From assembly GCA_963707025.1 (NCBI GenBank), contig CAVPOM010000018.1, forward strand, positions 160,001 to 224,000: DNA of 64,000 nt, written 5' to 3'. The notes under the pieces are model-generated. The model had not been told where the DNA came from. It did not search any database and saw nothing but the letters and a program-made list of their open reading frames with translations. Positions 46,581 to 64,000 of the stretch are shown piece by piece (position 1 is the first letter of the stretch; each line of letters starts with the position of its first letter). The DNA comes from an uncultured Verrucomicrobiae bacterium. Its GTDB lineage: Bacteria; Verrucomicrobiota; Verrucomicrobiia; Limisphaerales; Palsa-1400. Position numbers and translations under genes: made by a program.

Positions 46581-49500
46581 TCACGGGCGGAGCTGGATGA
46601 GGAGGTCTTTGCTGGCGACGGTTTCGCCGACTTGGGCGAAGAGGGCCTGGACGGCGCCGTCGGAGCTGGCGTAGAGGGTGCTTTGCATTTTCATGGCTTC
46701 CAAGGTGAGGAGTTTGTCGCCTTTTTTCACCTTGCTGCCCACGCTGACGGCCAGGGCGGTGAGGAGGCCGGGAATGGGCGCGCCGATTTGCCAGGGGTCG
46801 GACGGGTCGGCCTTGGGACGGGTCCTGGCCTTGACCTGGGCGGTCTTGTCAAGTATGGAGGCCTCGCGGGTCATGCCGTTGAGTTCGAAGGTGACGATGC
46901 GGCGGCCATCCTTGTCCACCGCGCCCAGGTGGATGAGCTTGATGAAAAGGGTCTTGCCCGCCTCGATGTCCACGGAGATTTCCTCGCCGGGCTTGAGCCC
47001 GTAGAAAAAGGCGCTGGTGGGGAGGACGGCCAGGTCGCTGTAGTCGCGCTCGAATTTGGCGTATTCGGCGAAGACTTCGGGGTACATGAGATGGCTGTAG
47101 AGATCGTCCGGGGTGGCGTCGCGCTTGAGTTTGAGGGTGAGTTGGTCCTGGATTTTTTTGAGGTGGAGCGGCTTGAGCCTGGCGCCGGGACGGCCGCGAA
47201 TGGGTTGGCGGCGGCCGAGGACGACTTTTTGCAGGCGGCGGGGCCAGCCGCCCAGGGGCTGGCCGAGTTGGCCGCCGAGCATGTCAATAACAGAGGCGGG
47301 GAAGGGGACGCTGCCGGGCTCAAGATTGAGAAGGTCGGCGGGATTGATGCCCCGGCTGATGAGGAACATGGCCAGGTCGCCCACGACTTTGCTGCTGGGG
47401 GTGACTTTAACGATGTCGCCCAGAAGCTGGTTGACCTGGGCGTAGGTGCGGGCGATTTCGGGCCAGCGCTGGGCCAGGCCCATGCTGGCGGCTTGTTCTT
47501 TGAGGTTGGTGTATTGGCCGCCGGGCATTTCGTGGTCATAGACTTCGGCGCTGCCGCTGCGCGGGGCGGTGTCGAAGGGGGCGTAAGCCAGGCAAACTTT
47601 TTCCCAGTAATCGGAGAATTCGTTGAGGGCGGCCAGGTCCAGGCCGGTGTCGCGGGGGGTGTGGCGCAAGGCGGCGACCAGGGAGTTGAGGTTGGGCTGG
47701 CTGGTGGAACCGCTCATGGCGGCAATGGCCAGATCCACCACGTCCGCGCCCGCCTCGGCGGCTTTGAGGACGGAAGCGGCATTGACGCCGCTGGTGTCGT
47801 GAGTGTGGAAATGCAGGGGCAGGGCGATTTCCTCCTTGAGCGCCTTGACCAGGGTGTAGGCGGCATAGGGGCGGCACAAACCGGCCATGTCCTTGATGGC
47901 GAGGAAATGAGCGCCCATTTTTTCCAGTTGCCGGGCCAGCTTGACGTAGTATTTGAGGGAGTATTTGGCGCGGCGGGGATCATGGATGTCGCCGGTGTAG
48001 CAGATGGCGGCTTCGCAGATGGCGTGGGTTTGCCGGACCGCCTCGATGGCGACTTGGAGATTGGGGGTGTAGTTGAGGGAATCGAAGATGCGGAAGATAT
48101 CAATGCCGGAAGCCGCGGCATGTTTGACAAAGCCGGCGACGACGTTGTCGGGATAATTGGAATAGCCGACGGCGTTGGCGCCACGGAGCAGCATCTGGAA
48201 ACAGATGTTGGGGATTTTTTGGCGCAAGAGGCGGAGGCGGTCCCACGGGTCTTCGCGGAGGAAGCGCATGGCGGTGTCGAAGGTGGCGCCGCCCCACATT
48301 TCCAGGCTGAAGAGTTGCGGGGTGCGCCGGGCCAGGGCGTCGGCGATGGCGAGCATGTCGTAGGTGCGCAAGCGGGTGGCGAGGAGGGATTGGTGGGCGT
48401 CGCGGAAAGTGGTGTCGGTGACGAGGAGTCTTTTTTGGGCGAGGGTCCAGCGGGCGAAGCGGCGCGGCCCCAGTTGCAGGAGCAGTTGGCGGGTGCCGGG
48501 CGGGGGTGCTTGTTTGCGGTCGTGGGGCGGCGGAGTGACCGCAGGCAAGGGGGCCTGGAGGGACTGTCCCTTGGCCTGGGGGTTGCCGTTGACAATGACA
48601 TCGCCGAGGAAGGCGAGGAGTTTGGTGGCGCGGTCGCGGCGGGAGGCGAAGGCAAAGAGGCCGGGCGAGGTGTCAATCAGGTTGGTGGTGGCGCGACCGG
48701 AGCGGAATTCGGGGTGGGCGATGACGTTTTCGAGGAAGGGAATGTTAGTCTTGACGCCGCGGATGCGAAATTCGCGCAGGGCGCGGTCCATGCGCACCAA
48801 GGCGAGGTCGAAATCGCGCCCGAAGGCGGTGATCTTGACGAGGAGGGAATCGTAAAAGGGGGTGATGACCGCGCCGGCATAGCCCATGCCGCCGTCCAGG
48901 CGCACGCCATAGCCGCCGGTGGAGCGGTAGGTGAGGATCTTGCCGTAGTCAGGGGTGAATTTATTTTCCGGATCCTCGGTGGTGACGCGGCATTGCACGG
49001 CATAGCCGTGGCGGGGAATGTCGCGGCCGGGCGGCAGGTTGATTTCGGGGCTGTGGAGGGAGAGGCCCTGGGCGACGAGGATTTGCGAACGAACCAGGTC
49101 CACCCCGGTGACAACTTCGGTGACGGTGTGCTCGACCTGGATGCGTGGGTTGACTTCGATGAAGAACCATTGGCGGCGGTCGAGGTCATAGAGGAATTCG
49201 ACGGTGCCGGCATTGTCATACTGGACCGCGCGGCCCAGGCGGACGGCGGCCTGGCACAAGTCGCGCCGGACGGAATCGTCCAGGGCGAAGGCGGGGGCGA
49301 TTTCGATGACTTTCTGGTGGCGGCGCTGGACCGAACAATCCCGTTCGTGGAGGTGGACGACGTTGCCGTAGTGGTCGCCGAGAATCTGCACCTCGATGTG
49401 TTTGGCGCGGGGGATGTATTTTTCCAGGAAGACGGCGGGGTTGCCGAAGGCGCGGCCGGCTTCGTCGCGGGCTTCATCGAGGAGGCGGGCGAGGTCGGCG

Positions 49501-50102
49501 GGTTTATGCGCCACTCTCATGCCGCGGCCGCCGCCGCCGAAGGCCGCCTTAATGATGAGTGGAAAGCCGATTTGGCGGGCAATCCGGAGCGCCTGGGCGC
49601 GGCCGGCCACGGCCTGCTCCGTGCCGGGGAGGATGGGAACGTTGAGTTTTTGGGCGAGGGCGCGGGCGGCGGTTTTGTCGCCCATCATGGCCAGGATGTC
49701 CGGGCGCGGGCCGACGAATTGGATGCCGGCCTGGGCGCAAGCGCGGGCGAAGCCGGCGTTTTCGGCGAGGAATCCGTAGCCGGGATGGATGAGGTCCACT
49801 TGCCTTTCCTTGGCCAGGGCGACGATGCCCGGGATGTCGAGGTAAGCGCCGACGGGCCCTTGGTTTTCTCCGATGAGATAGGCTTCATCGGCCTTGAAGC
49901 GGTGGATGCTAAGGCGGTCTTCCTGGGCGTAAATGGCGACGGTGCGCAAACCCAATTCGGTGGCGGCGCGAAAAACGCGGATGGAAATTTCGCTGCGATT
50001 GGCCACAAGCAATTTTTTGAAGGAACGGCGCGGCGGGGGCGCGCCGGCCCCGGCGGCGGGAGCGTCGGACGGTTCTGCGGCATGGAGCGGATGGCTCATC
50101 AT
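46581..50102 (-). CDS. pyc: Pyruvate carboxylase
   Basis: KKLLVANRSEI, HPGYGFLAEN, ERDCSVQRRHQK, RDAHQS, AIKDMAG, HTHDTSG, EAMKM biotin site. Confidence 0.97.
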   Translation of the reverse strand: MMSHPLHAAEPSDAPAAGAGAPPPRRSFKKLLVANRSEISIRVFRAATELGLRTVAIYAQEDRLSIHRFKADEAYLIGENQGPVGAYLDIPGIVALAKERQVDLIHPGYGFLAENAGFARACAQAGIQFVGPRPDILAMMGDKTAARALAQKLNVPILPGTEQAVAGRAQALRIARQIGFPLIIKAAFGGGGRGMRVAHKPADLARLLDEARDEAGRAFGNPAVFLEKYIPRAKHIEVQILGDHYGNVVHLHERDCSVQRRHQKVIEIAPAFALDDSVRRDLCQAAVRLGRAVQYDNAGTVEFLYDLDRRQWFFIEVNPRIQVEHTVTEVVTGVDLVRSQILVAQGLSLHSPEINLPPGRDIPRHGYAVQCRVTTEDPENKFTPDYGKILTYRSTGGYGVRLDGGMGYAGAVITPFYDSLLVKITAFGRDFDLALVRMDRALREFRIRGVKTNIPFLENVIAHPEFRSGRATTNLIDTSPGLFAFASRRDRATKLLAFLGDVIVNGNPQAKGQSLQAPLPAVTPPPHDRKQAPPPGTRQLLLQLGPRRFARWTLAQKRLLVTDTTFRDAHQSLLATRLRTYDMLAIADALARRTPQLFSLEMWGGATFDTAMRFLREDPWDRLRLLRQKIPNICFQMLLRGANAVGYSNYPDNVVAGFVKHAAASGIDIFRIFDSLNYTPNLQVAIEAVRQTHAICEAAICYTGDIHDPRRAKYSLKYYVKLARQLEKMGAHFLAIKDMAGLCRPYAAYTLVKALKEEIALPLHFHTHDTSGVNAASVLKAAEAGADVVDLAIAAMSGSTSQPNLNSLVAALRHTPRDTGLDLAALNEFSDYWEKVCLAYAPFDTAPRSGSAEVYDHEMPGGQYTNLKEQAASMGLAQRWPEIARTYAQVNQLLGDIVKVTPSSKVVGDLAMFLISRGINPADLLNLEPGSVPFPASVIDMLGGQLGQPLGGWPRRLQKVVLGRRQPIRGRPGARLKPLHLKKIQDQLTLKLKRDATPDDLYSHLMYPEVFAEYAKFERDYSDLAVLPTSAFFYGLKPGEEISVDIEAGKTLFIKLIHLGAVDKDGRRIVTFELNGMTREASILDKTAQVKARTRPKADPSDPWQIGAPIPGLLTALAVSVGSKVKKGDKLLTLEAMKMQSTLYASSDGAVQALFAQVGETVASKDLLIQLRP

Positions 50103-50207
50103 TGGGGCGACGGTATAGCGGGCGGCGGCGCGGGTGGAAAGAGCAAAGTGGAAGGGCGGGGCGGTTTTGGGTTGAAAAGGAGGAGGGGGTTGTAGTTTGA
50201 TTCTGTG

Positions 50208-51779
50208 ATGAAATACCGCCTTGCCAAACTTTGGCTGATTCCCTGTTTCGCCGCCGCCGTTTTTTCGGCGGACGGGCAGGACCATGGGGCGATGGTCAAT
50301 GCCCTGCTGCAACTCAAGGCCGATCAACCCGGGTCGGTGATCAACCGCCACCAGTACGGACAGTTTGCCGAACATCTTGGGCACGGCATTTATGGCGGAT
50401 TGTGGGTGGGGGAGAATTCGACCATCCCCAACACGCGCGGCATCCGCAGTGACGTGGTGGCGGCGCTGAAGAAGATGGGCATCCCGGTGCTGCGCTGGCC
50501 GGGGGGCTGTTTCGCCGACGAATATCATTGGCGGGACGGCATCGGCCCGCGGGAGAAGCGGCCCAAAATGATCAACACCACCTGGGGCGGGGTGGTGGAG
50601 GTCAACGCCTTCGGCACCCACGAGTTCATGGATTTGTGCGGGCAATTGGGCTGCGACGCTTATGTCTGCGGCAATGTGGGCAGCGGCACGCCGCAGGAAA
50701 TGATGGAGTGGGTGGAATACATGACCTCGGACACCGACTCGACCATCGCCAATCAGCGCCGGCAAAACGGGCGGGAGAAGGCGTGGAAGCTGGCCTATTT
50801 CGGCGTGGGCAACGAGAACTGGGGCTGCGGCGGGAACATGCGGCCGGAGTATTACGCGGACCTTTTCCGGCGCTACAACACGTTTGTCAAAAATTACGGG
50901 GCCAACAAACCCTACCGCATCGCCAGCGGCGCGGATGGGGGCGACTTGAACTGGACGACGGTGCTGATGAACCAGGCCGGCTCGCAGATGGACGGCCTCT
51001 CGGTGCATAATTACACCCTGCCCTCGGGCAGTTGGACCGGCCCCAAAGGGTCCGCGACCGACTTTGGCGAGGAGGCCTGGATCACCCAGTTATCCAGGAC
51101 GCTGGGGATGGACGGAATTCTTTCCCGGCACTCGGCCATTATGGACCGCACCGACCCGAAGAAACGGGTCGGGCTGATCGTGGATGAATGGGGGTCCTGG
51201 TATGATGTGGAGCCGGGCACCAACCCGGGCTTTCTTTACCAGCAAAACACCCTGCGCGACGCGCTGCTGGCGGCGCTCAATTTCAACATTTTTCACAGGC
51301 ACGCCGACCGCGTGCCCATGGCCAACATCGCGCAGATGGTCAACGTCCTCCAGTCCATGGTATTGACAGACGGCCCGAAGATGACGGTCACGCCCACCTA
51401 CTGGGTTTTTGAAATGTACAAAGTCCACCAGGACGCGACTTATCTGCCCGTGGCGGTGGTGACGCCCGATTACAAGTTTGGCGACCGGACCATCCCGATG
51501 GTGGACGCGACGGCCTCGCGCGACGCCGCGGGCAAGACGCATCTTTCGCTGGTGAATGTGGACCCGCACGCCGCCGTCATGGTCTCGTGCGAATTGCGCG
51601 GCCTGGCGGCCAAATCGGTGTCCGGCCGCATCCTGACGGCGCCGGAAATAAATTCTCACAACACTTTCGATGCGCCCAACGCCGTCGCGCCGCAGCCTTT
51701 CATTGGCGCGTCCCTGGCGGAGGGCAGGCTTTCGGTGAAACTGCCCGCCAAGTCGGTGGTGGTGCTGGAATTGCTTTAA
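50208..51779 (+). CDS. Alpha-L-arabinofuranosidase (GH51)
   Basis: [50 protein letters not shown]. Confidence 0.94.
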
Positions 51780-52106: not shown

Positions 52107-52218
52107 AATTACCAATGACAAGTACTCGATGGCAAATTCTCAATTATAGGACGGGCGCAATACCTTATTGGGTTCTCAGGATTGAAAATTGCCAATTGAA
52201 AATTTGTCATTGGTAATT
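52107..52218. repeat. AT-rich palindromic element with heptamer-periodic arms
   Basis: Perfect 15-bp inverted ends AATTACCAATGACAA / TTGTCATTGGTAATT, pairing continues imperfectly inward. Confidence 0.8.
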
Positions 52219-53348
52219 TATTGACCACAGACCCGGTGGTAAAGGGCCTGGTAGCGCGGGACGATGATGGCGGCGGAAAATAAATCGCGCGCGCGGCTTT
52301 GCGCGGCGAGGCCCAGTTGGCGGCGGCGGGCCGGGTCGCGAATCAATTCTTCCACCGAGGCGGCCATCGCCGCGACGTCGCCAAAGGGGACCAGAATTCC
52401 GCTGACGTTGTGCTCGACCACTTCCGGGATGCCGCCGACGCGGCTGGAGACGCTCGGACAGGCAAAACACATCGCTTCCAAAATGCTGAGGCAAAAGGTT
52501 TCCAGCTCCGAGGTGAAGAGTCCCAGGTCGGCGGCTTGGAGGTAGTCCTCAATGTCGCTGACTTTTTCGCGCACGATCACCCGATCCTGCAAAGCCATCC
52601 GCCGCACTTGTCCCTGGAAAGGGGCAAAGCTGTCTCCGGCCAAAATGAGCAGCTTGAAGGCATCGCGCGGGCGAATGCGCGCGGCGGCCTCCAGCAAGAG
52701 ATCAATGCGCTTGGGCGCGCGCAGGTTGGAGGAATGGAACAGCAACACTTCGCCGCCCAGGCCCAGTTCACGCCGCACCTCGTCGCGCGAACGCCGGGCG
52801 GGGCGCGGCTCAAAAAAATTATGTATGACATCAATGGGCTGCGTCACCCCCAGCACCTCCTGCGTCTCCCGCCGCAGGTAGGCGGACACGGTGGTGATGG
52901 CGTCCGAGCAGGCCAGGGCATGGCGGATGGCCGGGGCATAACCGGGATCGCGCCCCAGCAAGGTGGTGTCCGTGCCGTGCAGGGTGGTCACCAGGCGCGG
53001 CTGTTGCCGGGGCGGCAGCATGTCGCGCGCCAGGATGGCGGCGGTGGCGTGAGGCACGGCGTAATGGACATGGAGCACGTCCAGTTGGTGGTCGCGGCTG
53101 ACCTCGGCCATTTTTACCGAGAGCGGCAAGGTGTAGTCGGGGTATTTGAACAGCCCGTAATCGTTGATCACCACGGGATGGAAAAACAGGCGCGGCGCCT
53201 CCGCCGGGAGGCGGAAGGGGCGTTCGTAGCCGATGAAATGCACTTCCTCGCCGCGCCGGGCCAGTTGCTCGCCCAGCGCCGAGGCCAGAATTCCGCTCCC
53301 GCCGACCGAGGGATAACAGGTGATGCCGATTTTCAGGGGGCGGGCCAC
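52218..53348 (-). CDS. bshA: N-acetyl-alpha-D-glucosaminyl L-malate synthase (GT4)
   Basis: LKIGITCYPSVGGSG, LHVHYAVPHA, TTLHGTD, SNLRAPKR, ETFCLSILEAM; GTG start next to the bshB stop. Confidence 0.9.
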   Translation of the reverse strand: MARPLKIGITCYPSVGGSGILASALGEQLARRGEEVHFIGYERPFRLPAEAPRLFFHPVVINDYGLFKYPDYTLPLSVKMAEVSRDHQLDVLHVHYAVPHATAAILARDMLPPRQQPRLVTTLHGTDTTLLGRDPGYAPAIRHALACSDAITTVSAYLRRETQEVLGVTQPIDVIHNFFEPRPARRSRDEVRRELGLGGEVLLFHSSNLRAPKRIDLLLEAAARIRPRDAFKLLILAGDSFAPFQGQVRRMALQDRVIVREKVSDIEDYLQAADLGLFTSELETFCLSILEAMCFACPSVSSRVGGIPEVVEHNVSGILVPFGDVAAMAASVEELIRDPARRRQLGLAAQSRARDLFSAAIIVPRYQALYHRVCGQ

Positions 53349-53349
53349 G

Positions 53350-54087
53350 TCAAAAGCGCCGGGCGCCGCGGCTGAGTTGCGCAAGCGAGCCGGCGACCAC
53401 GGGATCACTGGGAAACAAGGCAATGGCATGGCCAACCCCGGCCCGCAATCCCTGAAACCGCGCGCGGGCCAGTTGGAGTTCCACGTAGGGCCGGGCGCGA
53501 AGTTGGGAAGCGTGCGCGGCCATCGCCGCCGTCCAAGCCGCGATAATTTCCGGGGCGGAAACGTCCATCAGCACGGGCGTGATATCGGGAGGCTCCGCTT
53601 CGGGAGTGACGGCGTAGAAGAAAAGCTGGTCAACGGCGTGGGGCGTCTGGCGCCGCAATTCCTTCAAGCCCCCGTAGCGGGCCAGCCGCGCGGCGTCGCG
53701 CACCAGGCGTCCGAGCCGCGCGTGATCGGGGTGCTGGTTTTCCACCACGCTGGGCGCGAGCACGATGGCGGGCCGGGCGCGCCGGATCAGGGCCGCAAGC
53801 TGGATGGCGTGGGCGGCGCGCATTTCCAGGCGCGCATCGCCGTCCAGCGTGATGAATTGAAGAGTGGCGCCGAGGAGGGCGGCGGCTCTTTTCGCCTCGG
53901 CCGCGCGTTGCGCGGGCGTGCCGCAGGTGCCGGCTTCGCCGCGGGAACAGATGACAAAATGCGCGGGCCGGCCGGCGCGGGTCTCGCAGGCGACGACGGC
54001 TCCGCAGGCAAATTCGATGTCGTCGGGATGCGCGCCAAAGGCCAGGAGCGGCGCGGGTTCAGGAGGGGATTTCAGTGTAGGCTTCAT
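53350..54087 (-). CDS. bshB1: PIG-L family deacetylase, BshB1-like
   Basis: LAFGAHPDDIE, SRGEAGT, HPDH; adjacent to bshA. Confidence 0.8.
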   Translation of the reverse strand: MKPTLKSPPEPAPLLAFGAHPDDIEFACGAVVACETRAGRPAHFVICSRGEAGTCGTPAQRAAEAKRAAALLGATLQFITLDGDARLEMRAAHAIQLAALIRRARPAIVLAPSVVENQHPDHARLGRLVRDAARLARYGGLKELRRQTPHAVDQLFFYAVTPEAEPPDITPVLMDVSAPEIIAAWTAAMAAHASQLRARPYVELQLARARFQGLRAGVGHAIALFPSDPVVAGSLAQLSRGARRF

Positions 54088-54835
54088 CGGAGCGGTCAAT
54101 GGGATCGCGTTTGACAAAAGTTATTTCCGGCGCATCGGCGGGGCAAAGATACGCCTGTTCGCCCAGGCCGGCAATGTAATGCGTGCAGTGGATGACCGAT
54201 TGCATCCAGCGCAGCCGGGAGTCGCGCGCCGGGCTGATCTGTTCCTTGCCGAAATCGGTCCGGGGCAGGGTAATGAAGGAATTCCCGCCCTGGTGCAGGG
54301 TCAGGGCGCCGTTGACGCAGCGGGCGCGCACCAGTTCGCCCGCGTAGGGCACGTCCACAAAGAATTCCGCCACGTCGCAGGCGGCGCGCCGGAAGGCCGG
54401 ATCGCCCGAGCGCGCCACGCGCACGCCCGCCAGCAGGCCCATGAGCCGGTACATCTCCAGGCAAAAATCGGCGGGGTTGGCGGCGTCCGTATTCGCGAAG
54501 GCCTCCACCCAGCGCGGGTCCACGAAGGGCGGCAGTTGCAGGGCGGTCCGGTCGCGCCAGCCGGCGGCGATGCGCTTGGCGAAAAGAGGCGAAAACTTGC
54601 GCTGCCACTTGTTTTCGCAGGCGAAATTGAGGCGCAAGGCTTCGCCGGTTTTGCGATGGCGCAGGATGGTGGCGGTCTCGCGCGGGTCGTGGTCGCTGTC
54701 GTGATAAAAGAAAACGATCTCCCCGCCCATTTCCGCCTGGAGCCGCCGGGCGGTCTGGATTTTGGCAAAAAGGAAGCGGCGCGGAAAGAATCCGCAGGGC
54801 TGCTGGCCAAAACAAATAATGGGCGATGTCGTCAT
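54059..54835 (-). CDS. Short (258 aa) BshC-like putative cysteine-adding enzyme
   Basis: GQQ...K, DHDxxE, SP...R...Q and YIAGLGEQAY match BshC motifs in the right order; operonic with bshB and bshA. Confidence 0.7.
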   Translation of the reverse strand: MTTSPIICFGQQPCGFFPRRFLFAKIQTARRLQAEMGGEIVFFYHDSDHDPRETATILRHRKTGEALRLNFACENKWQRKFSPLFAKRIAAGWRDRTALQLPPFVDPRWVEAFANTDAANPADFCLEMYRLMGLLAGVRVARSGDPAFRRAACDVAEFFVDVPYAGELVRARCVNGALTLHQGGNSFITLPRTDFGKEQISPARDSRLRWMQSVIHCTHYIAGLGEQAYLCPADAPEITFVKRDPIDRSDEAYTEIPS

Positions 54836-56550
54836 GGAGCGGGGCGCGCCTCTTCCTTTTTAGCATGCACGGCCTGAATCGCCAGACTGAACAGGACGCA
54901 GGCGGCGCAGCCGATGAGGTTGTACCAGAGATAACTGATTTCTTGAGGGGTATTCTTGAGATGGAAATAGAAGTATAACACCAGCCCTTCCGCCAGCACC
55001 GCCCCCCAAAAAACGGCCGTCCCATGCACCCATTTGACGAAAAAGGCGACGAGAAACAATCCCAGGACCACGCCGTAAAAGACGGAACCGACGATGTTGA
55101 CGGCCTGGATCAGGTTCTCCGCCAGGTGGGCATAGAGGGCGAAGCCCAGGGCCACCAATCCCCACATGGCCGTGAACCATCTTGAGGCCTTGACGTAATG
55201 CGCGTCGCCCGCCTCGCGTTTGAGGAGGTGCCGGTAAAAATCCACCGAGGTCGTCGAGCCCAGCGCGCTCAATTCCGCCGCCTTGGAGGACAGGGCCGCG
55301 GCAAAAAAGGCCGCGACCAGCAAACCAATCACGCCATGCGGCAGATGGGCCAGGATGAAAGTGATGAACACGTAGTCGCCATCGTTGGTTTGGGCGTGGA
55401 CATCGGCCTGGCGCAGCGCGGCCCGGGCTTCGGCGCGGATGGCTTCGCTTTGGTCGTGCGCGGCCAGGGCCTGGGCGCGGGCGGCGGTGGCGGCGGAGAG
55501 GTCGTGGCGGTGACGGGCCTCGAGCCAGGCGCGGAGGGATTGCTCCTTTTGCAAATAAACGGCCGCAAATTTTTGCTCGACAGCGTGAAATTTTGCGCCG
55601 TCATGCGCGGCCGCGGCCTGCCAGGAGGATTGGTTGAAAAAAACGGGCGGCGGCTCGAATTGGTAGAAGACAAACATGAGGACCCCCAGCCACAGGATGA
55701 GGAACTGCATGGGGATTTTGCAAACGGCGTTAAACATCAGGCCCAGCTTGCATTCCCGGGTGGAGGCTCCTGAGATATAACGCTGCACCTGGGATTGGTC
55801 GGTCCCGAAGTAAGAGAGCATGAGGCACATTCCCCCGAACATGCCGGACCAGAAGGTGTAGCGGCGGTGCAGATCGGGTGAAAAATCAACGGCGTTCATT
55901 TTATGGAACGTCCCCGCCAGGGACAACGTGTCGGTGCAGGTGAGCTGGGCGGGCAGCCGCGCCAGCAGAATGACCAAGGCCGTCACCATGCCGCCGAAGA
56001 TGACCATAATCTGGTATTTCTGCGTCACGCTGACCGCTTCATTGCCGCCGATGACGGTGTAAAGGATGACGAGCAGTCCGCTGAAGATGATGGTCAGGCC
56101 CAGGGGCCAGCCGAAGACGGTGGAAAGCACGATGGCCGGGGCGTAAATGGTGATGCCGGCGCCCAAGCCGCGTTGCAGGAGAAACAGCCCCGCGCCGAGC
56201 AGGCGGGTTTTGGCATCGAAGCGCCGGCCGAGAAACTCGTAGGCGGTGTAAACGTTCAAGCGGCGGAACATGGGGAGGAAAAACGCCGCCACGACGATCA
56301 AGGCCAGGGGCATGGCAAAATAATTCTGCACAAAAGTCAGGCCGTCCTCATAGCCCTGCCCCGGCACGGAGAGGAAGGTGATGGCGCTGGCCTGGGTGGC
56401 CATGACGGAAAGCCCGATGGTGACCCAGCCGGTGGTGCCGCTGCCTTTGAGGTAGCCGCTCAAGCCGCGCTGGCCGCGCGTCCGCCAGACACCGTAGGCG
56501 GCGATCCCGAGCATCGTGACGAACAGAACCAGGTAATCCAGCGGGTTCAT
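54832..56550 (-). CDS. Sodium:solute symporter (SSS family)
   Basis: GLSVMATQASAITFLSVPG, AYEFLGRRFD, YFGTDQSQVQRY, FAAALSS. Confidence 0.93.
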   Translation of the reverse strand: MNPLDYLVLFVTMLGIAAYGVWRTRGQRGLSGYLKGSGTTGWVTIGLSVMATQASAITFLSVPGQGYEDGLTFVQNYFAMPLALIVVAAFFLPMFRRLNVYTAYEFLGRRFDAKTRLLGAGLFLLQRGLGAGITIYAPAIVLSTVFGWPLGLTIIFSGLLVILYTVIGGNEAVSVTQKYQIMVIFGGMVTALVILLARLPAQLTCTDTLSLAGTFHKMNAVDFSPDLHRRYTFWSGMFGGMCLMLSYFGTDQSQVQRYISGASTRECKLGLMFNAVCKIPMQFLILWLGVLMFVFYQFEPPPVFFNQSSWQAAAAHDGAKFHAVEQKFAAVYLQKEQSLRAWLEARHRHDLSAATAARAQALAAHDQSEAIRAEARAALRQADVHAQTNDGDYVFITFILAHLPHGVIGLLVAAFFAAALSSKAAELSALGSTTSVDFYRHLLKREAGDAHYVKASRWFTAMWGLVALGFALYAHLAENLIQAVNIVGSVFYGVVLGLFLVAFFVKWVHGTAVFWGAVLAEGLVLYFYFHLKNTPQEISYLWYNLIGCAACVLFSLAIQAVHAKKEEARPAP

Positions 56551-56717
56551 GAGTAAACCCGGGTCAACACCGCCAGGAAAACCACCCAGGCGGCAAAGGC
56601 GGCCACCACAAAAAAGTAAACCGCCCGCCAGGTGCGGAAGCCGGGCAGGCCGGTGCCCTTTTCGTCAATACTAGATTCAGGCGCGCCCGGCGGGGCTGGA
56701 GTTCCCGGCGACTTCAT
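56547..56717 (-). CDS. 56-aa single-TM protein upstream of the SSS transporter (absent from ORF track)
   Basis: MKSPGTPAPPGAPESSIDEKGTGLPGFRTWRAVYFFVVAAFAAWVVFLAVLTRVYS*; ATGA overlaps at both ends. Confidence 0.8.
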   Translation of the reverse strand: MKSPGTPAPPGAPESSIDEKGTGLPGFRTWRAVYFFVVAAFAAWVVFLAVLTRVYS

Positions 56718-59239
56718 TTTCCAAGCGAGACCAGATTGGCAAACAGCCGGTAGGCTCCCGGCACGCCGTCGGGCAATTGCCGGAACCAGGAGAGAGCGGT
56801 ATAGGTGAAATAACCCCTGCCGTATTGCGCCACGAGCAGGCTGCCCTTGAGCGGCGCCTCGCCAGGGTCATGGCAGGCGAGCAACGGGGTGAAATGCTCA
56901 TCCCACTGGCTGGCAAAGTAAGCGCCGCGCTCCTGCACCCAGCCGTCGAAATCCGCCGGGACAATTTTGTTGGGCGTGTTGAAAACCGGATGATCGGGCG
57001 CCAGCAGCGTCATCTCGGCCGTCTCGTCCGTCACCCGTTCCCCGGAGACGGCAAGGCTGTAAGGGGCAAGCTGCATCACGCTCGGCCCTCTCTGGCTCGG
57101 ACGGTTGTAAAGAACAATGACATTGCCGCCGTTGGTCGCGAAATCGAACAACCCGGTCAAATGCGGCGCGAGGTCGGTGCGGACGTTGAAGGCGCGAATG
57201 CCCGCCACCACCGCATCCAGACCCTGTAGTTTCTCCGGCGTCAAATCCGCGCCGGTCAGCGGTGTCACCGCGCAGCCCATCCGCGCCAGCGCCTCGGCCA
57301 CCTCGTCGCCCGCGCCGGGAATGTAACCGACTTTGCGGGCGCGCATGGCCATTTCGAGGCTCAAGGCTTTGAGACGCGCGGGCGGCTGGAGCAACTGGGG
57401 CGGGATATGCTCGTAGTGTTCTTTAAGCTCCACCCGGCCAGTGTGCCAGGTCGCGCCACCCACATTCGCAACCGCCAGAAACTCCCCCGTGCCGGTCTGG
57501 GTCGGCGCGGTGATGGTGAAGGTAAAGCGCGCGCTCCCGCCTGAATTGCCCAGGGAAAAAGGTTGGGCTGCCGGCGTCACCTTCCAACCCGCCGGCGCCT
57601 CCAGTCGCAGCGTGCCCCTGGCATGGTCCCGCGCCGCCGTGACTTCCACCTCCGCGTCCCGCGCCGCGCCCGGCGGAAAAAGTCCTACATCGTCCACAAA
57701 TTTCAGCGACACCGGCGGGATGACCCGCAATGGAAGATGGCTCTCTCTTTGCACCGGCTCGTCGGTCACGGAGAATTCTTCGCCGTTCACCGCAAAGACC
57801 TGTTCAATGGGAAAAACGGGGGGGTTCTCCGGCCGGCCGATCAGCGAAACGTCGTCCACCCGGAAACGCCCGGCGGTGCCCTCTTCGCGCAACCAGTAAG
57901 GCTGGGTAATCGGCGTGTTGGTTGGGAGGACGCTGTTCAACTCGTGCATAATGAACCCGCCGGACTCCAAATTCTTCGGCCCAGGTCCGATTATTTCCTT
58001 GGTCCTGCCAGGATAGCGCACTCCGAGCCAGCGCACCGGCACGTCGCTGCGCAGGGTCACCTTAGTGCGCTGTGGCAGCGTTTCGCCCGGCACCACTTCG
58101 GCCTGCGCGATAGTCGTTTCCACCTCAAGCCCAAGGCACTCCTGCAAAATGTGATCCAATTGATGGCGCTTTTCATCCAGCACGATGTCCGCAGGCAGGC
58201 CGGCCAGAAGGTGATGGATTTTAATCAGGGCGGGCACGCTCGCCGCCGGGTGCGCCGGGTCGAAGTGCGCGATCACTTCATCGGTCATCGCCCCGATCTC
58301 CTTGCCGCCCGGGACGCGGCCCCAGGTTGTGTCCACCCCGTCAAATATATCGTTGGTCGCCGGTTCCCCGGCCAGGAAGGTAAAACCGGCGCTGCCCGCG
58401 CCCCCGCGCCCGCCCCTGCCGAAATTGCCAAGGCCCTGCGTTTTGTGCATGGAACGGCTGCGGCCGGCGATGACCCCGAATTCCGCGGGCACCTCCATCG
58501 TCAGCGAGCGTCCGCGGTTTTGGAGAAGCCGTTTGGGCTGCCAGGGTTTTAATTCGCCCAGTTGTTCGGGAAAAGCCTTGGGGTCGCCCGCCAGTTTGAA
58601 GGCTTCGCCCGCCAGTATGGCTGAGGCGGTGTGATGCCCGTGCTGGCCGCCGCCGCCATTGGTGGAAAAGTTGGCGACGACCACGTCCGGCCGGAAGGTG
58701 CGCATGACCCGCACAACGTCGGACAACACTTCTTGCTCGCCCCAGAATTTGAACGTCTCCCGGTAATCCTTGGAAAACCCAAAATCCTTGGCCCGGGTAA
58801 AAAACTGCTGGCCGCCGTCAATGCGCCGCGCCGCCAGCAATTCCTGGGTGCGGATCACGCCCAGCTCGTCCCCGATCTCCGGTCCGAGCACGTTCTGCCC
58901 GCCGTCGCCGCGCGTGACCGAGAGATAAGCGGTGCGACAATAGCGGCCCCTGGCCAGAAAGGCGATCAGGGTCGAGTCTTCGTCGTCCGGATGCGCCGCA
59001 ACCAAGAGCAGGCTTCCCATCTGGCGAAAACTGCGCAGTTCCTGGAGAATGTCCGGAGAAGGATCCGCGCCAGCCAGGGTGAGGAACGGCAAAAGGATGA
59101 AGGCAAAAGGAAGAAGTCCGCCCAGAAAAAGAGGCCCGCGGCGGCGGGCCTGTAAGGCGCGCGCCGCCCCGCGGAACCGGGGCGCAGGGCTTGGGCAGAG
59201 GAGAGGCAACGGCATCATCACGGCATCAGGTGCATTCAC
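56714..59239 (-). CDS. Large exported PIG-L family deacetylase with Ig-like and class I glutamine amidotransferase-like C-terminal domains
   Basis: Hydrophobic N-terminal segment; AAHPDDED, TRGDGGQN, DFGFSK, HGHH; GWVQERG, FRQLPDGVPGAYRLFANL; start uncertain. Confidence 0.85.
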   Translation of the reverse strand: MNAPDAVMMPLPLLCPSPAPRFRGAARALQARRRGPLFLGGLLPFAFILLPFLTLAGADPSPDILQELRSFRQMGSLLLVAAHPDDEDSTLIAFLARGRYCRTAYLSVTRGDGGQNVLGPEIGDELGVIRTQELLAARRIDGGQQFFTRAKDFGFSKDYRETFKFWGEQEVLSDVVRVMRTFRPDVVVANFSTNGGGGQHGHHTASAILAGEAFKLAGDPKAFPEQLGELKPWQPKRLLQNRGRSLTMEVPAEFGVIAGRSRSMHKTQGLGNFGRGGRGGAGSAGFTFLAGEPATNDIFDGVDTTWGRVPGGKEIGAMTDEVIAHFDPAHPAASVPALIKIHHLLAGLPADIVLDEKRHQLDHILQECLGLEVETTIAQAEVVPGETLPQRTKVTLRSDVPVRWLGVRYPGRTKEIIGPGPKNLESGGFIMHELNSVLPTNTPITQPYWLREEGTAGRFRVDDVSLIGRPENPPVFPIEQVFAVNGEEFSVTDEPVQRESHLPLRVIPPVSLKFVDDVGLFPPGAARDAEVEVTAARDHARGTLRLEAPAGWKVTPAAQPFSLGNSGGSARFTFTITAPTQTGTGEFLAVANVGGATWHTGRVELKEHYEHIPPQLLQPPARLKALSLEMAMRARKVGYIPGAGDEVAEALARMGCAVTPLTGADLTPEKLQGLDAVVAGIRAFNVRTDLAPHLTGLFDFATNGGNVIVLYNRPSQRGPSVMQLAPYSLAVSGERVTDETAEMTLLAPDHPVFNTPNKIVPADFDGWVQERGAYFASQWDEHFTPLLACHDPGEAPLKGSLLVAQYGRGYFTYTALSWFRQLPDGVPGAYRLFANLVSLGK

Positions 59240-59283: not shown

Positions 59284-59394
59284 CTTCGTGCCATTGGCAA
59301 TCAATTTCAAAAGCGAGAACGGACACTGGCACGCTGACCCTGGCAGGGCAAGATCTGCCGTTTGACTTTTTCCGGGAGAGTCGGATGTTATGCC

Positions 59395-59745
59395 ATGAAA
59401 ACTAAACTATTGAGATTGGTTTTGTTGGCCTCCTTGGCGGGGCTGTTCGCGGCGGGATGCACTGTGTATGTCAGGCCGCCGGCGGCCCAAGTGGCTGTCA
59501 GTGCGCCAGGCGAGGTGGTGGTGGAGGGAGCTCCGCCGCCCGCCCCTCCCTACGTGGATGTGGTGACGCTCAGTCCAGGCCCGGATTTCATCTGGATTGG
59601 CGGAGCTTGGTTCTGGGGAGGCGGTCGTTGGCAGTGGGAACGAGGTCACTGGGCCCGTCCGCCGCATCGCGGCGCGGTTTGGGTGGCTCACCATTACGAG
59701 TATCGCAACGGACGGCATGTATTTGTCCGGGGTGGATGGAGATAA
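59395..59745 (+). CDS. YXWGXW-repeat lipoprotein
   Basis: Lipobox-like FAAGC; WIGGAWFW, WERGHW, WVAHHY, VRGGW. Confidence 0.85.
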   Translation: MKTKLLRLVLLASLAGLFAAGCTVYVRPPAAQVAVSAPGEVVVEGAPPPAPPYVDVVTLSPGPDFIWIGGAWFWGGGRWQWERGHWARPPHRGAVWVAHHYEYRNGRHVFVRGGWR

Positions 59746-59924: not shown

Positions 59925-60842
59925 TCAGTGCAGGCCGGCGATCACTTCCTGGTTCATCTTGAAGTAGGGAGTGCCCGGCCCCTCCACCTGAATGGCGAGT
60001 TGGCTGGATTGGTTGGCGGCGGCGACGGCGCCATCGCGGTCGCCTTCTTTGGCCAGGATTTTCGCCTTGAGATGGAGCAATTGATAGGAGATGGGCGGAT
60101 GGGTCGCCAGCCCCATGTTGACCCACAGCAAGGCCTGAGTCAGGTCCTTGGTGTGGTCGAAGTAAAAGGTCGCGGCCCGGAGGTAGGTTTCGGGCTGCTT
60201 TTTGGCCGGGGAATCCATGGAGGCCTGAATGCGGACCAGGAGATCGCTGACGATGCTGACTTCCACTTTCACCGGAACGCGCACCCGGTCCCAAATCAAA
60301 TTGATGGTGGCCGAATCGTCCTGGAGATCGTTGACATCAATGGTAAAAGTCTCGACGGGCGGATCAATCTTGACCGGCGTCACTTTGAAGCGCGCGACAT
60401 CCTTCCTGGGGTCATAACCGTCTTTGCCCCAAAGTCCGGCATCTTTGTTCAGGATGACGGTCCAGGCCTTTTCGTCCGGGATGGTGTAGAGGCCGTATTC
60501 GCCTGCGGGAACTTCCTGGCCGTCGGCCCCGCCTAATTTTACCGGAGTGCTGAACGAGATCTTGGTGGAGGCGTTGTCGCCGGTACGCCAGAGATCGTTG
60601 TAGGGAACGATGCCGGCGAAAACGGCATGATGCCTCCTGCTGGGCCGGGAATAAACGATTTTAATCTCGGTCAATCCGACGCGTTGAATATTGGTGCAAG
60701 CCGGGCTGGCCTGGGGAAGCTCTGGAAACCGGATGGGGGGAGTGGCGGGCTGCATGGCCGCCGGGGTCTGCGCCGGCACGCCCCCGGCCAGAGCCAGCCC
60801 GGAGACGAAGAGGAGCGCGCAGGGCAATTTTGCGGGATTCAT
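59925..60842 (-). CDS. DUF2911-domain secreted protein with helical C-terminus
   Basis: ASP, YSRP, VPYNDLWRTGDN, VPAGEYGLYTIP. Confidence 0.85.
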   Translation of the reverse strand: MNPAKLPCALLFVSGLALAGGVPAQTPAAMQPATPPIRFPELPQASPACTNIQRVGLTEIKIVYSRPSRRHHAVFAGIVPYNDLWRTGDNASTKISFSTPVKLGGADGQEVPAGEYGLYTIPDEKAWTVILNKDAGLWGKDGYDPRKDVARFKVTPVKIDPPVETFTIDVNDLQDDSATINLIWDRVRVPVKVEVSIVSDLLVRIQASMDSPAKKQPETYLRAATFYFDHTKDLTQALLWVNMGLATHPPISYQLLHLKAKILAKEGDRDGAVAAANQSSQLAIQVEGPGTPYFKMNQEVIAGLH

Positions 60843-60935: not shown

Positions 60936-61475
60936 TTAAGGGGCATTGCTAAACGCAACGGAATACTGCGTCTTTTCCCACTGGATCTTGATCACGCCAC
61001 CGGAACCCTCCGCGGCCACGGAAAGGGTGAGTTGGTCCATCTGGGTATCCAACGGCGCTTTCTTCAAGTCCACCCGGGCCAAATCGTTCTTTTCATCCAC
61101 CGGAATTCCCCACTTGCCGGTGGTCTTGCTGATGGCCAGCTTGGAGGTGCCGGATTCCGATGGAACCATGTAGAGAGTATAAGTGCCGGCGGGCACCGTC
61201 GTGCCGCCCAGAACGATGCCTTTTTCGCAGACCAGGGTGGTGGCTTGATCCGCTCCCAGCCGCCAGGCCTTGTCCCACGGCACCAGAGATCCCCAGACTT
61301 TGCGCACCACATCGGTGCCGGGTTTCTTGCTGAAAGGCCGTCCGTAAGTAATCTTGACAGCGTTGCCACCGATGGTGGCGCTGACCGTATCATGAGGGCT
61401 GACTCCGCCCAGAGCGGGCAATACCGTGGCCGCGCTGAGCGCTGTGACAATAAATGCGTGTTTTAACATTTTCAT
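60936..61475 (-). CDS. DUF2911-domain secreted protein
   Basis: SP, YGRP, LVPWDKAWRLGADQAT, VPAGTYTLY. Confidence 0.85.
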   Translation of the reverse strand: MKMLKHAFIVTALSAATVLPALGGVSPHDTVSATIGGNAVKITYGRPFSKKPGTDVVRKVWGSLVPWDKAWRLGADQATTLVCEKGIVLGGTTVPAGTYTLYMVPSESGTSKLAISKTTGKWGIPVDEKNDLARVDLKKAPLDTQMDQLTLSVAAEGSGGVIKIQWEKTQYSVAFSNAP

Positions 61476-61617: not shown

Positions 61618-62478
61618 TCAGCCGGCCAGGCCGGACAGATAAGCGAGGATCAATCGGGGCAGATCGTCGCTGTAGCCGCCTTCCAGAACGCTGAAGGACG
61701 GAACCGCCAGCCGGCGCACGGTTTGACCCAGCCAATGAAAGTCCTCCTCTTCCAGGGTGCCCTCGGCCAGGGGATCGCCGCGATAGGCGTCGAAGCCGGC
61801 GGAAACGGCCACCAGGCCGGGCTGGTATTTTTTCAGCCGGGCCACGGCCTTTTCCAAAATGGCGCGGTACTCCGGGCGCGGGGTCCCAGGCGGGACTGGG
61901 AAATTGAAACAATTGCCGCCGCGATCGGCCTGGCCGGAGCCGGGATAGCAGGGATGCTGGTGGATGGAAAGGAAGGCGCAACCGGGTTGGTCAAGAAGAA
62001 TATCTTCCGTGCCGTTGCCGTGGTGGACATCAAAATCGAAGACGGCCACGCGCTGGCAGCCGGCGGCGCGGGCCTCCAGGGCGGCGATGGCGATGGAGTT
62101 GAGGTAGCAAAAGCCCATGGCGCGGTCCCGGGTGGCGTGGTGGCCGGGCGGACGCATCAGGCTGAAGGCCATCTCGCCCGCGCGGGCCGATTGCAGGGCT
62201 TGCAAAGCGCCGCCCACGGCGCGGCGGGCGTGGGCGGCAATTTGGGGATAAGCAGGGGTGTCGGCATCAATGTCGAATGGGATGTCCAGCCGCTGGAGGT
62301 GTTCCGGGGAGTGGGCGCGGAGGAGGGAGGCTTCCTCGACGGGAAGCGGTTCGCCCCAGGCCAGGCGGAGCGCGTCCTGGGATTTGAGGGCAGCAAGGGC
62401 GGCGAAGATGCGTCCGGGGCCTTCGGGATGGCCGGGGGCCGAGAATTCGGCGCAACGTATGTCAGTTATAATTTTCAT
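61618..62478 (-). CDS. Histone deacetylase-family amidohydrolase
   Basis: HPEGPGR, RPPGHHA, MGFC, DFDVHHGNGT, SAGFDAY, LEGGY. Confidence 0.93.
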   Translation of the reverse strand: MKIITDIRCAEFSAPGHPEGPGRIFAALAALKSQDALRLAWGEPLPVEEASLLRAHSPEHLQRLDIPFDIDADTPAYPQIAAHARRAVGGALQALQSARAGEMAFSLMRPPGHHATRDRAMGFCYLNSIAIAALEARAAGCQRVAVFDFDVHHGNGTEDILLDQPGCAFLSIHQHPCYPGSGQADRGGNCFNFPVPPGTPRPEYRAILEKAVARLKKYQPGLVAVSAGFDAYRGDPLAEGTLEEEDFHWLGQTVRRLAVPSFSVLEGGYSDDLPRLILAYLSGLAG

Positions 62479-62479
62479 G

Positions 62480-63370
62480 TTACAAAAGGCCGGCGTCTTG
62501 CAGGCGCTGGATCTCGGCGGTGTAGCCCTGGCGGAAGGTGGGATAACGGAAGGAATAGCCCAGCTCCATTTTGAGCTTGCGATTGAGAACTTTTTTGTTG
62601 GTGACGCCGCGCTTGGCGGCGGAGGCGGCGGATTCGGGGACGAAAGGGGGCATGTTCCTGCCCAGGGTCTCGGAGAGCCAGCGGAAGAAATGGATCTGCG
62701 GCACCGGCTCGTCGTCCACCAGATTGTAGATTTCCCCCGGACGGCCGCTTTGCAGGGCGGTGAGGATGGCGCCCATGACATCGTCGCGGTGGATCATGTT
62801 GAGGCAGCGTTCGCCCCGCCCCGGAATGGTCGCCTCGTTTTTCAGGTAGCGGAGGAAGTGATGGCCGCGCCCGGGGCCGTAAATGCCGGCCACGCGCAGG
62901 AGGACGGCGGGAAATTGTATTTCGCGGACGGAATCGAGCAGGAGCTTTTCGGCGGCGAGGAGGATGCGGCCGGTTGGGGTGGCCGGTTGGGCGGGGCTGG
63001 TTTCCTTGACCTGGGAGGCGTCGCTCTGGCCATAGACGCTGGTGCTGCCGGTGTGGATGAATTTTTGGGGCGGGGCCGGGGCCAGCCAGCGGAGCAGATT
63101 GCGGGTGCCTTCGAAATAGACCTCCTGATATTCCTCCGCTCCGCCCCTGGCAGAAGAAATGGTGTTGACAATCCAATCGTAGGGGAGGGGCACCCTGGCC
63201 AGATCGCCGGGCCGGGTGATGTCGGCGGTGATGGGCTGAAGGCCGGCGCTTTGCAGGCTGGCGGCGCCGGCAGCGGAACGGCGGAGGCCGGAGACGGCAT
63301 GGCCCAGGCGGAGGAGTTGGACGCCCAGAGGCAGGCCCACGTAGCCGCAGCCGATGATGAGAACGCGCAC
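62480..63370 (-). CDS. Atypical SDR / NAD-dependent epimerase (YeeZ-like)
   Basis: VLIIGCGYVG, STSVYG, LRVAGIYGPGR, RYPTFRQG; start moved to GTG 63370. Confidence 0.88.
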   Translation of the reverse strand: MRVLIIGCGYVGLPLGVQLLRLGHAVSGLRRSAAGAASLQSAGLQPITADITRPGDLARVPLPYDWIVNTISSARGGAEEYQEVYFEGTRNLLRWLAPAPPQKFIHTGSTSVYGQSDASQVKETSPAQPATPTGRILLAAEKLLLDSVREIQFPAVLLRVAGIYGPGRGHHFLRYLKNEATIPGRGERCLNMIHRDDVMGAILTALQSGRPGEIYNLVDDEPVPQIHFFRWLSETLGRNMPPFVPESAASAAKRGVTNKKVLNRKLKMELGYSFRYPTFRQGYTAEIQRLQDAGLL

Positions 63371-63380
63371 GGAAGAGTTT

Positions 63381-63413
63381 GAGATTAAGATTAAAATCAG
63401 GATCAAGATTAAG
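63381..63413. repeat. Degenerate (RGATTA)n single arm
   Basis: GAGATTAAGATTAAAATCAGGATCAAGATTAAG. Confidence 0.7.
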
Positions 63414-63436
63414 AAAGGGGCCGGAGAAGCGCGGGC

Positions 63437-64000
63437 TTATGGCAGAGCGGGGGTGTGAAGGGTTTTGGCGCAGGCGGCGGCGATAAAACCTTTGAAGAGG
63501 GGATGGGGCTGGTTGGGCTTGCTCTGGAATTCGGGGTGGAATTGGCAGGCGAGAAAGAAAGGATGGGAGGGCATCTCAATGAGCTCGACGAGCTTGTTAT
63601 CGGGGGAAGAGCCGCTGAAGACATAGCCGGCTTTTTCAAAAGCGGGGCGATAGGCATTGTTGAATTCGTAACGGTGGCGGTGGCGCTCGTTGGCCACGAA
63701 GGCGCCATAAAGGCGGCCGGCCTGGGAACCGACGGCCAACTGGCAGGGCTGGAGACCCAGGCGCATGGTGCCGCCTTTGCGGGTGATGTTTTTCTGCTCA
63801 TCCAGCAGGGCGATGACGGGATGGGGAGTTTTGGGATCAAATTCGGTGGAGTGGGCGCCGGCCAGTTTGAGGACGTGGCGGGCGAATTCGATGGTGGCAA
63901 TTTGCATGCCCAGGCAAAGGCCCAGGTAAGGCACCTTTTTTTCGCGGGCGAACTGGGCGGCCAGGATTTTGCCTTCGATGCCGCGCTCGCCAAAACCGCC
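63437..64000 (-). CDS. pyrG: CTP synthase, glutaminase domain (partial, 3' end)
   Basis: [41 protein letters not shown]. Confidence 0.96.

Follow-up and report, generated by a model that had tools for sequence, protein, structure and literature searches.

Bacillithiol synthesis is the closest described system to the one reported here. On family knowledge, BshA would make GlcNAc-malate and BshB would deacetylate its product; BshC (~520-560 aa; B. subtilis structure 4WBD, Pfam families PF10079 and PF24850) would then add cysteine. The accessible sections of PMC5790435 and PMC6178380 describe BshC as the sole bacillithiol step never reconstituted, with the cysteine donor unresolved, and the former adds that an activated cysteine is assumed to be needed. 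MshC of mycothiol synthesis (3C8Z), which has a class I synthetase fold, carries out an analogous reaction, joining cysteine onto a glucosaminyl acceptor.

According to the available text of Hiras et al. 2018 (PMC6282198), no low-molecular-weight thiol has been documented or predicted in Verrucomicrobia. As far as their accessible parts go, both this work and a 2025 survey required similarity in length between query and subject, and because of this both were blind to a form much shorter than BshC. A term search of the two supplements of PMC12719100 gave no Verrucomicrobiota or Opitut- entries, and the accessible parts of PMC4360819, PMC5372718, PMC7278568 and bioRxiv 10.1101/2025.07.06.663066 contain no description of a short BshC. 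Neither such a protein nor bacillithiol in Verrucomicrobiota is described in the full-text literature searched, from which subscription papers are mostly absent, and an earlier mention is possible.

The short bshC gene and its cassette

The window, i.e. the whole 64,000-nucleotide stretch of DNA analysed, comes from an uncultured Verrucomicrobiae bacterium and carries on its minus strand, in this order, two genes for DUF2911 proteins, a large PIG-L hydrolase gene, a symporter gene, a gene for a half-size BshC-fold protein (hereafter short BshC), bshB and bshA. The short BshC gene (54059..54835) is an open reading frame of 258 codons with zero internal stops, and its translation contains, exactly as quoted in the first-pass annotation, the motif blocks GQQPCGFFPRRFLFAK (residues 10-25), FFYHDSDHDPRE (42-53) and ISPARDSRLRWMQ...YIAGLGEQAY (200-229). 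This observation is confirmed, as is the overlap of both gene ends with the neighbours: the start ATG shares a 4-nt ATGA (54832-54835) with the stop of the symporter gene, and the 3' end overlaps bshB by 29 nt or 59 nt, depending on whether bshB starts with ATG 54087 or TTG 54117. This -4 overlap with the symporter gene recurs: the junction could be measured at 68 genome loci, and 52 of them have it. From these overlaps the first-pass annotation had concluded that the gene is not broken. The conclusion holds, although the overlap by itself is insufficient as proof; the gene is whole because the length of its family is fixed (see below).

The BshB1-like N-deacetylase (53350..54117, or from the alternative start at 54087; PF02585) scored 127.9 bits against TIGR04001 (BshB1), which is under the cut-off of 182.5 and still its best NCBIfam match; solved BshB-type relatives were matched with E values from 5e-19 to 5e-17. 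BshA, the GlcNAc-malate synthase (52218..53435; TIGR03999), has a likely start at GTG 53348, one base past the bshB stop. It scored 383.2 bits, above the equivalog cut-off of 273.7, and matched solved BshA with E 1e-83. On the other side of short bshC lie the sodium:solute symporter gene (54832..56550; PF00474, TIGR00813) and the gene for a large (~800 aa) zinc hydrolase of the PIG-L/LmbE family with a signal-peptide-like N-terminus (56714..59239), whose best NCBIfam match, the Mca conjugate amidase, is far under the cut-off. The two DUF2911 proteins (59925..60842 and 60936..61475) matched PF11138 with 160.6 and 125.9 bits, respectively. ARAGORN found three tRNA-Cys(GCA) genes in the G000 genome.

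Structural and profile similarity to BshC

Short BshC had zero Pfam matches and just one, chance-level, match in NCBIfam; a PDB sequence search with the protein or its profiles gave zero matches, and none was found in the plasmid and phage collections. An AlphaFold2 model was compared with solved structures. The model, based on 148 sequences, had a mean pLDDT of 96.3, and its top Foldseek match was B. subtilis BshC 4WBD (E 1e-9). VIA-align was run once on the structures listed by Foldseek and once on a set of 48,161 representatives, and it also ranked 4WBD first each time (Z 20.1, rmsd 2.7 Å, 240 residues aligned); the structural comparison that the first-pass annotation had recommended thus came out in favour of its proposal. 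In the predicted structure, the closest fold is the BshC Rossmann core with its connecting peptides.

The second structural match was the catalytic domain of class I LysRS (1IRX, chain 18-295; Z 14.3-14.5 over 208-209 residues, 11% identity), with all other structures at Z 10 or less. HIGH and KMSKS are the ATP-binding signatures of class I aminoacyl-tRNA synthetases. Unlike class I LysRS, short BshC has no anticodon domain, inspection of its translation and conserved columns revealed no HIGH- or KMSKS-like strings, and its genomic context is that of bacillithiol, not of translation. Membership in the MshC or CysRS groups was considered and rejected, as the respective Z values (7.6 and 8.3-8.8) are at the level of a shared Rossmann fold and no nearer than those of other class I enzymes. 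Cyclodipeptide synthases are stand-alone cores of ~240 aa, derived from class I synthetases, that have lost the ATP motifs and use aminoacyl-tRNA. None occurred among the best 50 matches of either VIA search, and they only illustrate, by analogy, the way in which a minimal core might work.

The relationship was also visible in profiles. In hhalign, the short BshC family matched a set of 32 canonical BshC sequences with 96.4% probability in local mode (E 1.2e-9, score 74.9; query 3-233 on BshC 82-360) and 97.7% in global mode (BshC 80-385), while 30 column-shuffled controls reached 0.07-1.8% with scores of 12-24. The canonical set comprised BshC of B. velezensis, Paenibacillus, Deinococcus and the genome G070, plus 28 of the 30 loci from a genome sample described below (two partial ones were dropped); with just 4 canonical sequences the match was 36% over 38 columns, and it was decisive with 32. 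PF10079 matched 23 of the 148 family members weakly (best E 3.7e-4) and gave no match to the short BshC of the window, which thus does not reach the gathering cut-off. The nearest named ESM clusters belonged to PF10079 (0.91). These weak matches, the ESM clusters and hhalign relate short BshC to BshC independently of the model, at an identity of 15-17%. Comparison with 33 homologs of equal length gave 1517, 1302 and 3915 substitutions in codon positions 1, 2 and 3, respectively; this third-position bias and a profile match far above the shuffled controls mean that the reading frame is not a product of chance. Short BshC lies under every family cut-off and has no coiled coil, and since it fails on both counts we file it as a BshC-like variant and not as a member of the family.

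Core residues kept and parts lost

Besides the predicted fold, short BshC has in common with BshC the order of the core elements (82-377). In the 32 canonical sequences, 31 positions reach a conservation of 90% or more; short BshC keeps 15 of these, and the other 16 are changed or absent. In B. velezensis numbering, which agrees with the 4WBD chain of B. subtilis within one residue, the retained set includes twelve near-invariant core residues: G89-Q90-Q91 (G10-Q11-Q12 in short BshC), K104 (K25), D133/D135/E138 (D48/D50/E53), R334 (R207), G350/E353/Y356 (G223/E226/Y229) and R377 (R243). The corresponding elements, i.e. GQQ..K, DHD..E, R334, GxxE..Y and R377, are kept at the aligned positions in at least 146 of the 148 family members. 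The first-pass annotation was therefore right that the catalytic-core motifs are present, with one exception: canonical Q338 aligns with M211 in the profile alignment, so the Q of RWMQ (Q212) is one position off. W128 of canonical BshC is replaced by an invariant F throughout the family.

The annotated absence of the coiled coil was also correct, though incomplete, as more of the protein is missing: canonical residues 1-81, ~245-281 and everything beyond ~380 have no counterpart. The lost C-terminal part includes both the dimerising coiled coil and the QER motif, and P497, Q502, R504 and H534 have no equivalents. A profile of BshC 380-539 matched the tail of short BshC with a probability of 0.2%, and one of BshC 355-539 likewise gave nothing significant; in view of these tests we claim no counterpart of the QER motif. 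The VIA alignment range on 4WBD extends to residue 517. Q78-R79 was considered as a counterpart of Q502-R504 and rejected, the alignment (0.2%) being at noise level. Presumably, the ADP pocket of BshC is formed mostly by residues beyond 380; if so, the short form would be without it. The family has in turn ~40 invariants of its own, among them H45, D46, N70, P83, K87, Y129, R142, S143, R204, W210 and H219, and a putative metal site is possible among C8, C125, C217, H219 and H45/D46.

Family size, length and spread

Short homologs, the collection of which had also been suggested, are numerous. A homolog search that covered lengths of 141-452 residues found 6,689 clusters at E<=0.001; of the top 120, 111 contain proteins of 255-258 aa, and a Pfam domain was found in none (0/120). 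Only six longer forms appeared among 8,000 candidates, all of them singletons, though the search tool itself flags this kind of evidence as weak. Five of the six bear a symporter or glycosyltransferase domain from the adjoining gene, and we read these as read-through errors. A search of 50%-identity representatives gave 264 matches at E<=0.001, and the best 150 of these consisted of the short family and many frameshifted pieces, with no full BshC among them.

A scan of species genomes yielded at least 562 confirmed relatives. The 80 retained are titled mostly Verrucomicrobiota, with a few from Planctomycetota, Melainabacteria and others; the closest among the matches listed is 93% identical. 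Of 301 genomes sampled from the class of the window, 42 carry the gene; these include abundant soil lineages and the single-contig genomes G504, G510, G522 and G560. Queries with divergent members brought in proteins labelled Patescibacteria, Melainabacteria and Ca. Aenigmatarchaeota (P0286). At one locus (L086:5801-7313) a divergent short bshC (39% identity) lies amid archaeal-looking genes, GatA/GatB-like by ORF reading, with a small PIG-L deacetylase gene convergent to it and with bshA, the symporter gene and the large PIG-L gene absent within 6 kb.

Several irregular copies were noticed. The open frame at L049:6001-7032 has 344 aa and extends into the bshB region, probably through a lost stop or a frameshift. 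In G466 (C10:312378-313138) short bshC is split in three pieces, and in G155 (C2:1487614-1493911) the large PIG-L and bshA matches are fragmented; both cases are probably frameshifts, from assembly errors or decay.

Conservation of the cassette

The association with bshA and bshB, another feature shared with BshC, was followed in 80 genome loci and 80 metagenome loci, counting those with enough flank. In genomes, short bshC is accompanied by bshB in 73/74 loci, bshA in 66/67, the large PIG-L gene in 59/63 and the symporter gene in 67/70, one of the latter being a distant match (23%). The metagenome loci gave similar values for bshA (39/40), the symporter (45/46) and PIG-L (29/30), and bshB was found in 28/57 and missing in 29/57. 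Where 5.7 kb or more of upstream sequence is available (86 loci), DUF2911 genes occur in 77. In contrast to BshC, the short form has DUF2911, a PIG-L hydrolase of the secreted type and a symporter as regular companions. The cassette association of DUF2911 (one or two copies), a domain mentioned in one paper, is a possible lead to its function. Homologs of the large PIG-L protein carry AHPDDE...HGHH in 84 of 90 cases and a hydrophobic, signal-peptide-like N-terminal stretch in 80 of 90. No recurring neighbour beyond the six cassette genes was found among 1,885 flanking ORFs at the 160 loci.

A subgroup of cassettes without bshB, in which short bshC is followed directly by bshA, includes the loci L246 (G376:C11:54000-66500), L092, L093, L112, L116 and L140. 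The genome G376 (95% complete) has no BshB1-like gene elsewhere either; such a gene is present in 4/5 genomes of its family.

Replacement of full BshC across genomes

Two genome samples show that short BshC takes the place of BshC in the bshA-bshB cassette. The first consists of 151 genomes of the window's own phylum, 8 of which have bshA: 7 with the short form and one (G070) with a canonical BshC of 521 aa; the remaining 143 have neither form. The second consists of 121 genomes of the phylum of G155, whose locus is titled Phycisphaerales. Here bshA is present in 64 genomes, with canonical BshC in 63 and the short form in one (G155 itself), and four further genomes have canonical BshC and no bshA match. 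Taken together, 72 of the 272 genomes possess bshA, 64 with full BshC and 8 with the short form, and the two forms never occur together (0 of 272). As the sampled genomes are kin and not independent trials, such co-occurrence counts are overstated. PF10079 is also absent from five further short-form genomes (G155 among them). A sample of 61 genomes centred on G151 had no PF10079 match either and was uninformative on this point.

In the own-phylum sample the large PIG-L gene and the short form share the same 7 of 151 genomes. In the second sample the hydrolase gene was seen in only 5 of 121, all bshA-positive, and genomes with canonical BshC seldom have it (4 of the 63 with bshA).

In G070 the canonical bshC (L081:738-3838) is located between a SAM methyltransferase gene (possible NmbA) and bshB, bshA, and the genome also carries YpdA. 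In the phylum of G155, Planctomycetota by its locus title, the counts amount to 67/121 genomes for canonical bshC and 64/121 for bshA (G217-G333), versus 2 species in the accessible table of the 2025 survey.

Alternative readings

The first-pass annotation interpreted the protein as a half-size BshC, which our results support, and it offered two readings, a minimal natural BshC or an enzyme adding a different group. The rival that survives best, an unlikely one in our opinion, is of the second kind: the cassette would make a different glucosaminyl-carboxylate conjugate, carrying another aminoacyl or acyl group or made from an acceptor that is not GlcN-malate. Such a conjugate would be handled extracytoplasmically by the PIG-L hydrolase, the symporter and DUF2911 proteins. 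The tight link of the short form to this secreted-type set, which is rare beside canonical BshC, speaks for such a product, as do the loss of Q502/R504, the many family-specific invariants and the cassettes lacking bshB.

The cassette BshA points in the same direction, since it lies on a separate branch with its own invariant residues. Among full-length matches to TIGR03999 it reaches ~380-400 bits, versus 418-540 for canonical-linked BshA (one truncated match scored 352). In a quick, unrooted tree of 46 cassette sequences (sampled at random from 113) and 29 canonical-linked ones, calculated without a clade test, the former are set apart from the latter by a branch whose SH-aLRT is 100. The motif D72-x-T74-x-P76 is private to the cassette BshA (113/113) and G287C is found in 83/113. 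On the other hand, this BshA is above the equivalog cut-off, retains the GGSG, H..H, TTLHGTD and N/R/K motifs, and shares 64 conserved positions with the canonical-linked group.

YpdA, BrxA/B and YtxJ were not found in 5/5 short-form genomes (G000 and four relatives), which would fit a different product; however, YpdA is above the cut-off in just one of 5 canonical-BshC genomes tested. That GshB was not found in 5/5 short-form genomes counts for the cysteine-adding reading, since a different main thiol could then be in use. The retention of the BshC core residues and the exact replacement of BshC in both genome samples also count against a different conjugate, and it is this replacement that favours the minimal-BshC reading, with the catalytic role itself being a prediction.

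It is quite improbable that the system is a split one, in which the role of the coiled coil and C-terminal domain falls to a partner, either one from the cassette (BshA, BshB, symporter) or some unrecognised protein. The loss of the C-terminal invariants, the translational coupling of short bshC to both neighbours and the co-divergence of BshA would agree with such a division of labour. One version, a split gene with the coiled coil encoded separately, was rejected, as a PF24850 coiled-coil gene was not found in 5/5 short-form genomes searched. The lack of any additional conserved neighbour, a model that forms a complete, high-confidence single chain, and the archaeal-type contig, where short bshC stands apart from three of the cassette genes, also argue against a partner.

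Finally, short bshC might be no more than a fragment of bshC, truncated or in decay, or an error of assembly. This reading, suggested by the half-usual length and the unmatched family models, is refuted by the near-constant length over thousands of clusters, the spread over hundreds of species genomes, the codon-position bias and the scarcity of longer forms, and its probability is negligible.

Proposed reaction and significance

We suggest, with a probability of about 0.65, that short BshC adds cysteine to glucosaminyl-malate, giving bacillithiol or a close thiol variant, an activity predicted from its gene context and core residues. GlcN-malate would be bound in the Rossmann cleft, expected to be lined by G10-Q11-Q12, K25, D48-H49-D50/E53, R207, G223-x-G-E226, Y229 and R243, and cysteine would be joined to it via an amide bond without involvement of a coiled coil. 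A fold resembling class I aminoacyl-tRNA synthetases and devoid of a HIGH or KMSKS string makes an already-activated cysteine the favoured donor. Cys-tRNA(Cys) would be the first candidate, taking roughly half of the weight of the cysteine-adding reading, and the remainder is shared by ATP activation on the enzyme and another carrier. Thiol conjugates might be cleaved outside the cytoplasm, and their sugar-malate part taken up again, by the exported PIG-L hydrolase and the symporter.

A bolder version, which we regard as doubtful, is that short BshC is a monomeric, ATP-independent ligase using aminoacyl-tRNA, that it marks a separate bacillithiol branch extending from Verrucomicrobiota to Melainabacteria, Patescibacteria and DPANN archaea, and that it makes a new bacillithiol-like metabolite, which the PIG-L hydrolase, symporter and DUF2911 would cycle through the envelope. 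If the ligase is of this type, its reconstitution would reveal the long-missing donor of BshC.

The cysteine-adding reading predicts bacillithiol in Verrucomicrobiota; a compound of this type is likely in bacteria thought to lack any, which would fill the stated thiol gap of this group. A natural version of 258 aa also indicates which parts of BshC may be dropped, i.e. the coiled coil, the 80 N-terminal residues and the QER motif, and it narrows the targets of mutagenesis to the twelve shared residues. As a minimal form provided by nature, short BshC would help to elucidate the BshC reaction, and its small size makes it easy to try against candidate donors.

As for the remaining content of the window, a small ORF resembling a lipoprotein with WXXGXW repeats (59362-59745) lies on the opposite strand between the DUF2911 and large PIG-L genes. 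The flanks of the cassette (46581-51779 and 61618-63934) contain a pyruvate carboxylase-like ORF (by inspection) and genes for an alpha-L-arabinofuranosidase, a histone-deacetylase-family protein and an NAD-dependent epimerase.
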